Below are positions 54,960-59,924 of a DNA stretch of 59,924 bases, piece after piece. The position numbers and the translations under genes were made by a program. This stretch comes from Patescibacteria group bacterium (lineage in GTDB: Bacteria > Patescibacteriota > Patescibacteriia > Veblenbacterales > UBA10138): positions 191,784 through 251,707 of the forward strand of contig JAHITT010000004.1 in NCBI GenBank assembly GCA_018817715.1, read 5' to 3'. Below the pieces are notes generated by a model. It ran no database searches. It saw only the letters and a program-made list of their open reading frames with translations, and was not told the DNA's origin. How positions within the stretch are numbered: position 1 is the stretch's first letter; each line of letters begins with the position of its first letter.

Positions 54960-57914
54960 TTATTTATTTTGAAATAAGTGTTTAATAAGCTTACTAATTT
55001 TTGGTAATTTATATTTTTGCCAGAATAAGTTTATTAACAAGCCGATGATTATTACTGTTAATAAGGAATAACTTAGCCAGTTATTAGTTTGTTTACTTAA
55101 ATTAATTTCTGGTTGGTCTGCTAAAGGATTTAATTCTGGAGGTGTTATAAATATATCTTCGGGCGAGCGAGCCCATAATTTAAGGCCGGTTTTGGTTTGG
55201 ACAACAAAACCGGTTATTTTTATGGGACTACCTAAAGTAAAAACTGGCCATTTTAGATTTTTGTTTTTTAGTAATACAACTAGAGTATCTTCATTTTGTT
55301 CAAGGGTCAGTTGACTGGCACTATATTTATTAATTGTACCGGTTAGGGTTACAAATTCTCCTTCCAGATCTTCGTTTAGGTCGTTTAAGTTTATTTCTTT
55401 GGCTTGGGGTGCTGGTTGGTTGGCTATAATTTTTAGGGGATCATTTTTATAAATTAATAATCTGGTGCCGTAGGTTTCGCTACGGGAGATTTTGCCTTGT
55501 AATTCAATCGTATCACCAGTTTTTATATTGGGTATTATTACGTTGTCGGACCAAGTGACTTGCAATCCCGATCCTTGCAGAAACATTATATTTTTACTGA
55601 TTTGTCCAGGTGCAGCAGCCACCAAACCTTGTAGTTTTACTTTAGTATTAGTTTCTATATTTTTTACATCTGTTAAGGATATAGTTTCAATTGTTTCTTC
55701 TTCATTTTCTGTTATTAGTAGATTGTCTTCCCCGGGGGTAGGAAAATTAGTCCATAGCCATTTATTATTTATTAAAGCATAAGCCAAACCCTCTTTAGCT
55801 GGCCCGTAGTTTAAAGAGGAAGTTGTTTCTTGATTGTTTTTGAGGACTAATTTGCCACCCTTATTTAGTAAGTTACTTTTTAATATTGTTTTGTCTATGA
55901 CTAAATAATTATTAGGCTCTATAGATAGGTCGGGCAGGTTTATAATTTGGGAATTATTAATTATTTGCCAGCCAGCCGCGCTGGCTGTGGTGGAGTTGGG
56001 GTTATACAATTCTAGCCACTCTTCACTATCATTACCTTTAGGGTTGGGCATTATTTCTGTTAGCAAAATAGGCCCGCTAGTTAGACCGGCTACTTTGGGC
56101 ACGGGGTTAGTTGTTATATTTATGGTTTGTATTTGTTCGGATTTTAATCCCGATTCGTCGGTAATAGTTAGTTTGACTGTATATTTTTTAGATTCAATAT
56201 AAGCATGTGAAGGCGTAGTTAAACTGCTGGTTAAGCCGTCGCCGAAGTCCCATTTAAAATTTAAGTTGTCTTTTTCTGGGTCGCAACTGTCGGAAGCGTC
56301 AAATACTAGTATTTCACTAATAAGGCCGGTTTTGGGTATGTCCCAGGCTAGGATTGGCGGCAGGTTAATTTTGTTTATTATATTAGTTTGTCCGGGTGTT
56401 GGTTTGGTTGTCCATATCCAAGAGCCGTCGTTTTGTCGGGCATAACTGGCCCCCTCTTTAGCTGGACCTTGATAACTCACAGAAATTTTTATTAGTTTAT
56501 CTGGTGAGGTTAAGGTTATTTTTTCTGTTCCAATGTTATCTAAAATTAAACCGGTAGTTGTTCGTGGTAGTAGTAAAAAGTCTTGAGATTTAATAATAGT
56601 GGAAACTAAGGATTGTTGGTTAATAGTGTAAGAAAAAATATTATCTTCTAAAAGCCAATTGTCTAGGTTAATAGATTGGTCAGTCGGATTAAATAGTTCT
56701 ATAAATTCAGTTAAATCATCCAGCGGTGGATTGGGGTAAAGTTCATTAAACTGAACAGTATTTTTAGATGGTTCCAGTGTTGTTTCGTTATTACCTAATT
56801 CAATTAAAAGGGGTTTGTTAGGTAGCCCGTAACTAGGTTCCATTTTTATAAAATCACTTTTATCATTATCACTATCCAAGCCGTCGGGTAGCCGGCCCAA
56901 ACTGTAAGGTTTAATAATAGCTGGGGCATTGTTGGTAATATTGCCATCGTCCCAAGCGCCGTAGCTTATTTGGTCAATAATTGTCTCTTGGTAACGCAGT
57001 AGCAGGGTATCGCCACTATTATTAAGATTGCCTTTGGGAGAACGAATAACATAAAAACGACTACTATCATTAGTACCCAAGGAGCCGCTTAAATAAGTTT
57101 TGCTATTACCACCATCGCTTAGAGAAAATAAAGATAAATCAATTGTTCGATTGGTACGGTTATAAATTTCTACCCATTCGTCTGAGCCTTCGGTAGGATC
57201 ACTGACTAATTCATTTATAACCACTTCACCTGGCAGTACGGTTGGTGTGGGAGTAGGTTGGTAAATTATGACCGGCGGCGGATTTATAGGTGTTGGTGGG
57301 GCAGGGGTTTCAATAGGGCTGAGTGAATTATGAGGCTGAGCATTGGCTAAAATAAAATCACTGGCGTTGTCATTAGTATCTTGGCGATTACCTAAAGAAT
57401 CTTGTTTGCGCAGGATAGATTGATTAGTTGTTGGGTTAGTAGCAAAAGCAGTTGTTTCTGCTAAACCATTATTAATTATTCCCCAAGCCAAACTATCGAT
57501 AATTTGGCCAGTATCATTGGCGCCTTGTCTTAGAGCTATGCCGTTATTATCGGCAATAGTTTGGCTGGTGGTAATATCTGGCACAATAGTTATGTCGGTA
57601 AAACTGGAGCTGGCCCATAAATAAAAACCTTGGGCTTTAACAATGGAGCTTTCGGTCCAGGATTTTATGGTAGTATCAGTTGTGCCGTTAGCGGTTCTTT
57701 TTATTAGGCGATAACCTTGTAAATCAATATCCTGGTTAGTGGGATTAAATAATTCTACAAAATCATTGGTGGTTTTACCTTCGCCCCCAGTTGTTTGTAC
57801 TTGGTTTATTACCAGGTAGTTAGTGGCTGCTTGGCTAGTTTTAGCAAATAAAAAAAGCGTTAGGGCACTACTAAACAAAACGCTTAAAATAATTAATTTG
57901 GTCCTACCCTCCAT
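54960..57914 (-). CDS. C-terminally membrane-anchored surface protein: 4 lamin-tail domains, PKD domain, two OB-like modules
   Basis: LTD signatures VINQV..NDFVELFNP..DLQGY, VINELV..DEWVEIYN, FNELYPNP..EFIELFNP..NLDNW, LTEIMPNP..EEWLELYNP..AGW. PKD motif FDASDS.DP....L.F.WDFGDG. C-terminal TM LLTVIIIGLLINLFW. Confidence 0.8.
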   Translation of the reverse strand: MEGRTKLIILSVLFSSALTLFLFAKTSQAATNYLVINQVQTTGGEGKTTNDFVELFNPTNQDIDLQGYRLIKRTANGTTDTTIKSWTESSIVKAQGFYLWASSSFTDITIVPDITTSQTIADNNGIALRQGANDTGQIIDSLAWGIINNGLAETTAFATNPTTNQSILRKQDSLGNRQDTNDNASDFILANAQPHNSLSPIETPAPPTPINPPPVIIYQPTPTPTVLPGEVVINELVSDPTEGSDEWVEIYNRTNRTIDLSLFSLSDGGNSKTYLSGSLGTNDSSRFYVIRSPKGNLNNSGDTLLLRYQETIIDQISYGAWDDGNITNNAPAIIKPYSLGRLPDGLDSDNDKSDFIKMEPSYGLPNKPLLIELGNNETTLEPSKNTVQFNELYPNPPLDDLTEFIELFNPTDQSINLDNWLLEDNIFSYTINQQSLVSTIIKSQDFLLLPRTTTGLILDNIGTEKITLTSPDKLIKISVSYQGPAKEGASYARQNDGSWIWTTKPTPGQTNIINKINLPPILAWDIPKTGLISEILVFDASDSCDPEKDNLNFKWDFGDGLTSSLTTPSHAYIESKKYTVKLTITDESGLKSEQIQTINITTNPVPKVAGLTSGPILLTEIMPNPKGNDSEEWLELYNPNSTTASAAGWQIINNSQIINLPDLSIEPNNYLVIDKTILKSNLLNKGGKLVLKNNQETTSSLNYGPAKEGLAYALINNKWLWTNFPTPGEDNLLITENEEETIETISLTDVKNIETNTKVKLQGLVAAAPGQISKNIMFLQGSGLQVTWSDNVIIPNIKTGDTIELQGKISRSETYGTRLLIYKNDPLKIIANQPAPQAKEINLNDLNEDLEGEFVTLTGTINKYSASQLTLEQNEDTLVVLLKNKNLKWPVFTLGSPIKITGFVVQTKTGLKLWARSPEDIFITPPELNPLADQPEINLSKQTNNWLSYSLLTVIIIGLLINLFWQKYKLPKISKLIKHLFQNK

Positions 57915-58000
57915 AGGATTAAAATTAAGGTTTAATTATAATTATTATAAACCCCTTGGCTAAATTGTTACAATATGGCAGGCTAAGATAGTCTGGTATT

Positions 58001-59656
58001 TTAGTGAGGAATGATTTTATTGGCCGGAGTGGTGAAATTGGTATACACGCTAGGTTTAGGACCTAGTGGGGGCAACCCCGTGGAGGTTCGAGTCCTCTCT
58101 CCGGCACCAGTAGTAACTTGTTCGGAATTAAGAATATGGAGCGATTTTGCGGAAGCCAAAATCGCGCTTTGATTTTCGCCAAAACCCTTTCCGCCTACGG
58201 CGGAAGCCGTGAAATCCCATAATTCCCCCCAGCGTATGGAAACCGTTTTGTCCTTGATTTCAGGGTTAGAGCCGATTTTCTGAAAAAACTTCTTCCATTC
58301 TAGATGATTGGAAGTTTTTTCTAAATCGGCCGCTTGTTTCAAGGACAAAACGAAACTCCGCAAGGGTTCGACCCAATTCTTTCTCTGTTGCCCAAAATTT
58401 GTTTCTGATTCGAGCAAACCCGCTTTTTCACGCATGAGCAGGTCTTTGCGCGCGAGATACATTTCTCGTTCAATATCGCCGTCAAGAAAAACTGAAACGA
58501 GCTTATTCAGTTTTTCTTCGTTTGCTCGAATCTTCTCTTTCAAATTTTTGGCAACACTTCCTTTTTCAGAAATTGATTCGTTTTCCCAAGCAGTAACCTG
58601 CTTGTCCATTTCTTCAATTTCAGAAAAAGGAAGCGACACTGATTGAAGCAGTGTTTGCAATTGTGTGGCGAGAACTTTTTCTTGCGTATACGGCTGTGCG
58701 CACTTTCCATTTTTCTTGGTGCAACGATAGTAGGTGTAGCGTGTGCCAAAACGATTGGTCGCATGTTGCGCCGTAATCGCACAGCCACACTCGCCACACT
58801 TTGCAAACCCAGTGAACGCGAACGGAAGCGCAACTTTCGATTTTCTCGGTTTCTTGCGCGAAGTGAGCACCTTTTGGACTGCTTCAAACAGTGTCGGGAA
58901 AAGAATTGGCTCAAAGTTTCCGCTGTGCCATTCTCCGCGATGTTTGATGAAACCGAGATATGCTCTGTTGGTCAACATTTTCACAACGGAAACTTTGGCA
59001 AGTGGCGTTCCTTTTTTCTGGACAACGCCGTGATCCGCCAAAAAATCCGCTAACGACTTGAGCGTATATGTTCCCGTGGCGTATTCCTCAAACGCTCGCT
59101 TGATGATACGAGATTTCACTTTGTCAGGTTCAATATTTTTCGTTTTCAAATTGTTCACATAGCCAAATGGAGCGAGCGTTAGCCATTCGCCACGGCGGAT
59201 TTTTTGGCGGATACCACGCTTTACATTTTCAACCAAGTTGTCAGAAAAATATTTGCTCTGCCCGAACGCCACTTGCAACATGAATTTCCCTTGCGGAGTT
59301 GGCTCAAACCAAAACTGCGGAAAGCGTAAAGAAGCAATTCTGTTGATGTCTACGAGATAGATAATTTTACCGCCATCAACAGAATTACGGGCGAGACGGT
59401 CGGGGTGCCAAGATAATATTCCCAAAGGTTCTGGAGATTTTTCAATATACTCAATCATTTTGGCAAAACCGTCTCGCCCGGGCTTCTTTGCGCTTTTCGC
59501 TTCCGTAAATACTTTTACGATTTCAATGCGTTCTCTGCTCGCATATTCGCGTAATTCAAAAAGCTGTGCCTCAATGGACATTATCTGCTGGTCATCTTCC
59601 TCGGTGCTCTTGCGAGCATAGAGAACGCATTTAGTTTTGGTTTGAGTTGTTTCCAT
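58001..59656 (-). CDS. large serine recombinase (resolvase domain, recombinase domain, zinc ribbon, coiled coil)
   Basis: VLYARKST (Ser17 nucleophile), HPDRLARN, CGECGC...YYRC zinc ribbon. aa 477-518 are encoded inside the inverted repeat. aa 519-551 are antisense to tRNA-Leu and flank, so the true 3-prime end is uncertain. Confidence 0.85.
   Translation of the reverse strand: METTQTKTKCVLYARKSTEEDDQQIMSIEAQLFELREYASRERIEIVKVFTEAKSAKKPGRDGFAKMIEYIEKSPEPLGILSWHPDRLARNSVDGGKIIYLVDINRIASLRFPQFWFEPTPQGKFMLQVAFGQSKYFSDNLVENVKRGIRQKIRRGEWLTLAPFGYVNNLKTKNIEPDKVKSRIIKRAFEEYATGTYTLKSLADFLADHGVVQKKGTPLAKVSVVKMLTNRAYLGFIKHRGEWHSGNFEPILFPTLFEAVQKVLTSRKKPRKSKVALPFAFTGFAKCGECGCAITAQHATNRFGTRYTYYRCTKKNGKCAQPYTQEKVLATQLQTLLQSVSLPFSEIEEMDKQVTAWENESISEKGSVAKNLKEKIRANEEKLNKLVSVFLDGDIEREMYLARKDLLMREKAGLLESETNFGQQRKNWVEPLRSFVLSLKQAADLEKTSNHLEWKKFFQKIGSNPEIKDKTVSIRWGELWDFTASAVGGKGFGENQSAILASAKSLHILNSEQVTTGAGERTRTSTGLPPLGPKPSVYTNFTTPANKIIPH
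58023..58109 (+). tRNA. tRNA-Leu (anticodon TAG), CCA encoded
   Basis: Acceptor GCCGGAG/CTCCGGC, anticodon stem CTAGG/CCTAG, loop TTTAGGA, long variable arm. Confidence 0.9.
58104..58228. repeat. left copy of a perfect 125-bp inverted repeat (starts in the last 6 nt of tRNA-Leu)
   Basis: Reverse complement of 59665-59789, matched base for base by hand. Contains internal hairpins GCGATTTTG/CAAAATCGC and TTCCGCC/GGCGGAA. Confidence 0.95.
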
Positions 59657-59664
59657 ACGGCTTA

Positions 59665-59789
59665 GGGGAATTATGGGATTTCACGGCTTCCGCCGTAGGC
59701 GGAAAGGGTTTTGGCGAAAATCAAAGCGCGATTTTGGCTTCCGCAAAATCGCTCCATATTCTTAATTCCGAACAAGTTACTACTGGTGC
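59665..59789. repeat. right copy of the perfect 125-bp inverted repeat
   Basis: Begins 8 nt upstream of the recombinase ATG. Identical to the reverse complement of 58104-58228. Confidence 0.95.
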
Positions 59790-59924
59790 TGTAATTATAC
59801 ACTTTGCGCGAACCTTTTTCGAGCGGAAACTGGACGAATGAATCAGCCCCGCCACCGCCTCGCAGAGCCTCGGCGGACACCAAAGAAAAATGTTCCTTGC
59901 TTTTCGGATTTGCGCGCGACCAAT

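Follow-up and report, generated by a model that had tools for sequence, protein, structure and literature searches.

A large serine integrase gene between long inverted repeats at a tRNA-Leu gene of Patescibacteria, and its probable place in an integrative element with a duplicated attachment region

The integrase gene, its repeats and the tRNA gene

The stretch of DNA considered here (hereafter the window, 59,924 nucleotides; positions 191,784 to 251,707 of contig JAHITT010000004.1, assembly GCA_018817715.1) belongs to a Patescibacteria group bacterium. Close to its right end it harbors the gene of a large serine integrase, bracketed by long inverted repeats and lying against the 3' end of a tRNA-Leu gene. 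This arrangement is described below together with its relatives, and is discussed as part of a putative small integrative element whose attachment region would be present twice.

The tRNA-Leu(UAG) gene occupies positions 58023-58109 of the plus strand (ARAGORN; Rfam RF00005, 57.7 bits), and an Rfam scan of 57900-59924 gave no other match. The left repeat arm, named R here, begins in the final six nucleotides of this gene, GCACCA, and 58104-58228 is the exact reverse complement of 59665-59789 (125 out of 125 positions, both by sequence readout and with a repeat finder). When one indel was allowed, the pair extended to 58104-58243 (R, plus strand) and 59649-59789 (R', minus strand), that is 141 nt with 97.9 % identity; the right arm then takes in the integrase start codon (59654-59656), which is located 8 nt from the perfect part of the arm. 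The element side displayed a G+C content of 0.41-0.49, against mostly 0.30-0.42 on the host side, and only 135 nt separate the right arm from the contig end. An earlier sequence-only reading of the window had already reported the 125-bp repeats, the start of the left one in the GCACCA of tRNA-Leu(UAG), the ATG 8 nt from the right one and a large serine recombinase between them. This anatomy was fully recovered here, the start of the left repeat through the tRNA boundaries given by ARAGORN and Rfam, and the class of the enzyme through its domains.

The integrase open reading frame (ORF) spans 58001-59656 on the minus strand and encodes 551 amino acids. Pfam domains Resolvase (PF00239, residues 11-158, E=2.6e-22), Recombinase (PF07508, residues 181-267) and Zn_ribbon_recom (PF13408, residues 281-329) were found; the latter two, corresponding to DNA-binding domain 1 (DBD1) and to the zinc ribbon of DNA-binding domain 2 (DBD2), both scored above gathering cut-offs. 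The nucleophilic serine, Ser17 in the motif YARKST, was kept in at least 90 % of 58 homologues, and the nearest solved structure was that of SPbeta integrase (E=6.5e-6). An exact-sequence lookup of the 551-residue product returned no record. There is no stop codon ahead of the left arm, a feature that the sequence-only reading had missed: the frame stays open through the whole arm and the putative crossover core, and then runs antisense through the tRNA gene. The minus strand of the left arm thereby encodes the last ~45 integrase residues before the core.

Recurrence in relatives and structure of the junctions

Homologues of the integrase numbered thousands, the closest ones (55-97 % identity) being encoded in assemblies of Patescibacteria (also Candidate Phyla Radiation, CPR), many of them on contigs of 1.7-1.9 kb. 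At least 582 relatives were confirmed in the set of species-representative genomes. The loci fetched were four that surround near-identical proteins and 80 taken from species-representative genomes; individual loci are designated by numbers preceded by L. Inverted repeats bracketed orthologous integrases in 56 loci with uncut arms, their length ranging from 84 to 215 nt (median 132). Identity between the two arms was 100 % in 24 of these loci, 97-99.9 % in 16, 90-97 % in 14 and below 90 % in two, with an overall range of 83-100 %. The loci came from MEGAHIT, SPAdes and other assemblers, and several were found in the middle of contigs of 100-516 kb, the largest being the contig of L045. Serine recombinases with only 41-46 % identity to that of the window were likewise accompanied by repeats of 80-122 nt. 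In L006, the integrase is 97 % identical to that of the window and the arms are 100 % identical, yet the element is located in another host at another tRNA-Leu gene (anticodon CAA).

The two arms of a locus evolve in concert, since in 44 out of 55 loci no arm from elsewhere was as near to the upstream arm as its own partner. Arms from different subfamilies were barely alignable, and several loci displayed chimeric arms. Gene conversion or homologous exchange probably keeps the arms identical.

The downstream arm overlaps the 3' end of a convergent tRNA gene by 4-6 nt in 62 loci. The targets were, roughly, tRNA-Ala (24), Leu (22), Glu (14), Val (4), Arg (2), Phe (2), Pro (2) and Lys (1). Orientation was uneven: out of 67 related loci, 62 displayed the common arrangement, three the opposite one (L008, L040 and L058) and two were provided with tRNA genes on both sides (L017 and L043). 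In the three opposite loci, the tRNA gene is found on the 5' side of the integrase gene and is co-directional with it; all three sequences end within ~550 nt of the integrase gene. The integrase of L008 is 96 % identical to that of the window. L040 is the unambiguous case of the rare orientation, with tRNA-Ala|R' upstream and R followed by a P arm (as part of an inverted second repeat, Z', see below) downstream, and arms that are 92 % identical. L001 also carries a tRNA 3' fragment upstream. One element was recovered on 11 contigs from several samples and displayed the same orientation in all seven contexts shown. In L071 (8058-8492), 43 nt copied from the 3' end of tRNA-Glu come next after the downstream arm, and the intact tRNA-Glu gene is situated ~260 nt beyond; the history of this junction differs from that of the other loci.

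A second repeat pair, named Z, was found in about 20 loci. It comprises 123-422 nt directly outside the upstream arm and recurs in inverted orientation 1.1-6.7 kb further upstream, with 91-100 % identity between copies. The 135 nt to the right of R' in the window (59790-59924) are identical to the Z of L006 (5990-6124) at 134 positions, so that the window ends inside Z, 135 nt from its start at the right arm. Contigs built by MEGAHIT at k141 also break off 135-150 nt into Z, those of a relative after about 149 nt; the length of the overhang only roughly fits a k-mer size of 141 and was dropped as evidence on the assembler setting. Z holds a 28-nt inverted repeat of its own, ACACCAAAGAAAAATGTCC... 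/ ...AAAAGCAAGGAACATTTTTCTTTGGTGT, with halves 28 nt apart (L002 1716-1799), of which the window includes one half only (59868-59897). This repeat could be an operator of the XRE-type repressor or a terminator.

Between the two Z arms lies an operon that runs divergently to the integrase gene. Its first gene encodes a protein of ~67 residues with an XRE-type helix-turn-helix (HTH) and is followed by variable genes, such as those of a trypsin-like protease with zinc-ribbon proteins, sodium:solute symporters, a MazF toxin, an ADP-ribosyltransferase, NUDIX hydrolases, restriction-modification systems and large unknown proteins. Genes for replication, capsid or conjugation were absent from the cargos of relatives, including those of 1.1-1.9 kb, and a scan of IMG/VR detected no relatives and hence gave no support for a phage. 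Neither a third arm copy nor tRNA fragments were found within 10 kb upstream in the relatives; the distal end of the element is thus not marked by R.

Three junctions per locus were compared in one common orientation, complete triplets being available for about 20 loci. The internal junction reads P arm, NCAC, R, and is gttcgcgcaaagtgtataattaca|GCACCAGTAGTAAC in both L006 and the window. The tRNA junction reads tRNA, NCAC, R, and the far junction reads P arm, NCAC, host; the latter was located 1.4-7.5 kb beyond the right arm in the relatives. The only sequence common to all three is this block of four nucleotides, GCAC at tRNA-Leu, TCAC at tRNA-Glu and tRNA-Pro and CCAC at tRNA-Ala, which corresponds to tRNA positions 71-72, the discriminator and C74. 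When the tRNA side of the tRNA junction was joined to the host side of the far junction, a tRNA 3' end with its native trailer was rebuilt, whether CCA was encoded or not, and this rebuilt host site agreed with empty tRNA-Leu sites in metagenomes. The host-side (B') sequences were not conserved across loci.

As judged by sequence comparison, such triplets bear the signature of conservative recombination between an element site, attP, and a host site, attB, yielding the hybrid sites attL and attR. The tRNA|R junction is attL, Z|host is attR and the internal Z|R' junction is an intact, inverted copy of attP. The loci thus represent an integrase system with typed sites, and the repeat is its attP region in duplicate; it is unusual that one attP stays whole within the integrated element, inverted relative to attL. 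Of these sites, the window shows no more than attL and the internal attP copy. In attL, the T-arm and acceptor 3' strand of the tRNA are the B arm, the GCAC at 58104-58107 (plus strand) is the crossover region, and R is the element (P') side, which supplies the CCA and trailer of the tRNA. In the internal copy, R' is the P' half, the core is the GCAC at 59786-59789 (minus strand; assigned from the junctions of relatives, the window being identical to L006 here), and the P arm is gttcgcgcaaagtgtataattaca at 59790-59813 (minus strand).

The motif TTCG was found 23 (or 22) nt before the core in 47 out of 47 P arms and 17 nt before it in 46 out of 47 tRNAs, where it belongs to the T-loop (TTCGA); the distances in the window are 23 and 17 nt, respectively. 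In large serine integrases, the motif bound by DBD2 lies 5 bp nearer to the centre in attB than in attP (PMC11722253). The offset of 5-6 bp observed here fits this rule, and TTCG may thus be the DBD2 motif. This suggests that the integrases read the universal T-loop of tRNAs, which would explain their wide range of targets. Two motifs, TTCG in the P arm (-23) and TTC(C/G)GAA in the P' arm (about +23), put the dyad centre near the first two nucleotides of the block (GC at Leu, TC at Glu and CC at Ala), found in the window at the block ends 58104-58105 and 59788-59789. By this alignment, which was made by hand only, the central dinucleotide of elements targeting tRNA-Leu would be the palindrome GC, and such a palindrome abolishes site polarity in other serine integrases.

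The integrase frame was open to or past the core in 61 out of 62 loci, and the C-terminal tail of the protein is set by DNA beyond the crossover point, because the frame stays open across the core. Most homologues displayed a peptide encoded antisense to the tRNA, and 15 out of the 120 closest homologue clusters a tail encoded by the P arm, (V/L)IIHFARTFFE... or VSIVPNSHLF.... A plus-strand ORF of the window (59647-59841, 64 amino acids) mirrors the integrase C-terminus (GELWDF...VTTGA) owing to the repeat and then runs into the P arm as VIIHFARTFFERKLDE, the same tail as in homologues whose gene is followed by Z' and not by a tRNA.

The arms are predicted to be structured. Hairpin 1 in R (58141-58165, plus strand) consists of the stem GCGATTTTG / CAAAATCGC and a T-rich run, which makes it terminator-like in the window; compensatory changes were found at all seven predicted base pairs among 21 relatives. 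Its second copy (59728-59752, minus strand) is placed between the integrase ATG and a promoter-like site in the P arm, TCGAAA-17-TATAAT (59794-59822, minus strand), which points across the core into R' and the integrase gene. A -10-like hexamer precedes the core by 3-4 nt in 43 out of 49 relatives (TATAAT in 24 of them, at least five matches out of six in 38). The right arm is thus probably the 5' leader of the integrase gene, as far as can be read from sequence, and its sequence is complementary to that with which the same integrase mRNA ends (3'). Hairpin 2 in R (TTCCGCC-TAC-GGCGGAA, 58189-58205, plus strand) is a predicted fold for which equivalents with different sequences were visible in many relatives; it was absent from the consensus fold of 21 relatives.

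Some relatives displayed more complex arrangements. In tandem arrays (L187 5062-15363, L188 519-10618 and the attR of L014), integrase arcs and cargo arcs alternate, and every junction is a Z|R site. The order in L187 is R'-int-R|Z'-(ResIII, N6_N4 methylase, AAA_15, HTH)-Z|R'-int-R|tRNA-Glu, those in L188 and L014 being similar, and the cargos of these arrays include restriction-modification-like defence genes. The integrase gene of L096 (1-2306) is of mosaic structure: another subfamily (CCAC core) accounts for the 5' part of the gene and the upstream Z|R', whereas the 3' part, R and Z' are nearly identical to those of the window, which indicates recombination between different elements inside the integrase gene. 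The Nomurabacteria metagenome-assembled genome CALRHG01 (L017, L041 and L047) harbored three or more elements of this family, which differ in subfamily and in site; one of them consists of an integrase arc between two convergent tRNA-Leu genes.

A scan of metagenomes for the tRNA-Leu 3' end yielded 89 loci, nearly all of which were empty sites in unrelated hosts; no flipped copy and no empty site from the same host were among them. The only related host was that of contig L121, whose empty site reads GGCACCAGCTCACC. Immediately upstream of the tRNA gene, the window carries a minus-strand ORF of 984 amino acids (54960-57914) with internal direct repeats (for instance 56670-56709 and 57726-57765, 80 % identical), and a homologue of this ORF (57 % identity over 175 residues) was found beside the same tRNA-Leu gene at the empty site of L121.

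A probable integrative element with two inverted attP copies, and alternatives

The repeat of the window is most likely part of a small integrative element (in relatives, about 3.5-10 kb), located at the tRNA-Leu gene's 3' end and provided with an attP region in two inverted copies. The element would have been inserted there by its own large serine integrase. Its attP region (~400 bp) would be composed of a P arm with the promoter-like site (Z), the 4-nt core and the structured P' arm (R), and the integrase gene would have one copy on either side. The downstream one would have recombined with the tRNA gene (attB) and would now be split, its R half being fused to the tRNA as attL and its Z half being placed at the far end of the element as attR, past the contig end. 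The upstream copy would be intact, with its R' half serving as integrase leader and its Z half leading into the cargo operon headed by the XRE-type repressor. Excision by attL x attR recombination would produce a circle in which the two inverted Z-core-R copies part a 1.4-kb integrase arc from the cargo arc. Either copy of attP may be usable on such a circle, and the internal copy may still be active after integration. Use of the downstream copy would result in the common orientation, and use of the upstream copy, or a later inversion of the integrase arc, in the rare one.

In agreement with an integrative island, the tRNA 3' end of the window is restored by the element and the integrase gene is placed next to attL; variable cargo and a distal att junction were observed in relatives. 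Recombination at the upstream site is indicated by L040, with its tRNA|R' upstream and R|Z' downstream, and by L017, L043 and L001, in which tRNA sequence is found on both sides. The two-sided loci are most simply explained by recombination of the internal attP with a second tRNA gene.

Several points weigh against this interpretation. The cargo and attR lie outside the window and are deduced from relatives. No circular form was observed, and tandem arrays are another source of junctions that lead from the integrase gene to R|Z' (L096, L097 and protein tails); P-arm-encoded tails had been considered as a count of free circles and were dropped for this reason, the arrays L187, L188 and L014 giving the same junction. 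No recombination directionality factor was recognised among the cargo proteins. The TATAAT of the P arm could be an integrase-binding motif instead of a promoter. Finally, equal use of both attP copies would need extra selection to yield the observed ratio of 62:3.

That both attP copies are active, which would make this a natural dual-attP element, is a more tentative proposal and is considered doubtful. If true, the live attP could invert the integrase segment against attL with the integrase alone, and such a switch would be reversible because both products are again an attL-type and an attP-type site. Recombination with other tRNA genes could drive chromosomal inversions from one tRNA gene to another, and arcs could be exchanged like cassettes, in the manner of engineered recombinase-mediated cassette exchange. 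Expression of the integrase could furthermore be coupled to the state of recombination through the P-arm promoter and the structured leader in R. Doubled integration sites, regulation of the integrase gene and cassette exchange are candidate purposes of the duplication, which may also have none.

Among the alternatives, an autonomous switch comparable to Hin, in which the integrase mainly inverts its own gene between the arms, fares best and is nevertheless judged unlikely. The integrase would recombine the internal attP with attL, attL acting as attB, reversibly and without directionality factor. Such inversions would toggle transcription of the gene between the P-arm promoter and read-through from the tRNA and would alter the C-terminal tail. 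The sequence-only reading had proposed a switch of this kind, which found partial support only: opposite orientations do occur in nature (3 out of 67 loci, with two more having tRNAs on both sides). Concerted evolution of the arms, the lack of conservation of host-side B' sequences and the Z'|R junctions with another element in tandem arrays, by which attL may serve as attB, also speak in its favor, but tandem arrays may equally be formed by homologous fusion of circles. Orientation is strongly biased (62:3), and the element found on 11 contigs was oriented alike in the seven contexts shown. The arms of L040, a locus in the rare orientation, are only 92 % identical, so that it is not actively flipping. 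The enzyme is of the large integrase type and the ends of the repeats are att cores; in canonical large serine integrases, attL is locked through coiled-coil contacts. The switch moreover leaves the second repeat pair around the cargo unexplained. Flipping mediated by RecA, also raised in that reading, is possible.

Much less probable is an independent transposon resembling an insertion sequence (IS), in which a 1.69-kb unit with terminal inverted repeats of 125-140 bp and a serine transposase would happen to lie beside tRNA genes and unrelated cargo. Both interpretations offered by the sequence-only reading assumed a self-contained unit of this size, and this part did not hold: the right arm joins a conserved Z, shared with L006 in another host, and attR follows further out. 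The frequency of homologues on contigs of 1.7-1.9 kb would suit an IS, but short contigs are expected from a de Bruijn assembler whenever a Z longer than k is repeated. The integrase segment stands alone between two tRNA sequences in L017, L043 and L001, yet the precise joining of two different tRNAs by their 3' ends is beyond a single insertion. Wherever the upstream sequence of the other loci was long enough to reveal the junction, the upstream arm abuts the conserved P arm and Z and never arbitrary host DNA, and the distal end of the element is always Z|host.

An assembly fold-back or chimera, which the perfect arms and a repeat 135 nt from the contig end could evoke and which the sequence-only reading had named as its refutation, is practically negligible: the same architecture was found in more than 50 independent assemblies, including the contig of L045 and mid-contig loci (100-425 kb), the arms are imperfect (83-97 %) in 16 loci of the 56 with this layout, and what follows the right arm does not match the tRNA in reverse complement. 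Recurrence of the arrangement excludes chance as well. Caution about the contig end was reasonable, and its position is explained by the second repeat, Z.

Comparison with known systems and significance

The enzyme is a large serine integrase and the element is classed here as a tRNA-targeting cargo island. Like phiC31, Bxb1, A118/LI and SPbeta SprA, it combines a three-domain enzyme with short sites sharing few nucleotides at the crossover, a motif located 5-6 bp further out in attP than in attB, and attP x attB recombination into attL and attR. It differs from these in that attP is present twice, in inverted orientation, within identical repeats of ~400 bp around the integrase gene. It also differs by the integrase frame crossing the crossover point in nearly all loci, by an attB formed of the T-arm and acceptor end of many tRNAs, and by the tiny size of the elements, in which no phage or conjugation genes and no directionality factor were recognised.

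Identity with a Hin-type system, a terminal-repeat IS or a plasmid of the 2-micron type was rejected on the defining features of each. In Hin, Gin, Cin and Pin, a serine recombinase gene is likewise located inside an inverted-repeat segment and both orientations occur in nature. Those enzymes comprise ~190 amino acids with a C-terminal HTH, act at 26-bp hix-type sites and require an enhancer bound by Fis, in contrast to the 551-residue integrase-type enzyme, the 125-140-nt repeats ending in att cores and the orientation bias encountered here. The yeast 2-micron plasmid (FLP/FRT in inverted repeats of 599 bp) resembles the inferred circle in layout only, with two unique arcs, two long inverted repeats, a recombinase target in each repeat and the recombinase gene in one arc. 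FLP is a tyrosine recombinase, and the 2-micron plasmid replicates and uses inversion for copy-number amplification, whereas the present elements have a serine integrase, no replication genes found in their cargos and a location integrated at tRNA genes. Tn4451 (TnpX), Tn5397 (TndX) and family IS607 are small elements moved by a serine recombinase through a circular intermediate. Both of their ends abut target DNA and they lack long terminal inverted repeats, whereas in the present elements the right arm is continued by DNA of the element, and a tRNA 3' end serves as target through typed attP and attB sites.

The closest ecological analogues are tycheposons, small cargo elements at tRNA 3' ends that display tandem accretion and integrase clades tracking the tRNA target; 474 out of 501 carry tyrosine recombinases, and their attachment sites are partial tRNA copies flanking the element (bioRxiv 10.1101/2020.12.28.424599). 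The present elements share with them the small size, the location, the cargo, the tandem accretion and the link between integrase clade and tRNA target, but only a 4-nt core is common to their att sites, the integrase is a serine enzyme and the attP region is duplicated in inverted orientation. In open-access papers and bioRxiv preprints, nothing was found that describes this element family from CPR bacteria, an integrase gene with its whole attP region duplicated in inverted orientation beside it, or an integrase reading frame that runs across the core.

The family represents a very common compact mobile element of CPR/Patescibacteria, a group in which few mobile elements have been described. 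It also explains a recurrent assembly break beside tRNA genes in these genomes. The proposed recognition of the T-loop and acceptor end, with a core that tracks the tRNA class, is of interest for genome engineering with serine integrases, and the duplicated inverted attP offers a concrete test of an integrase system doubling as inversion switch or cassette exchanger. Since transporters, toxins and defence systems are among their cargo, the elements may plausibly be a major route by which these bacteria exchange genes.

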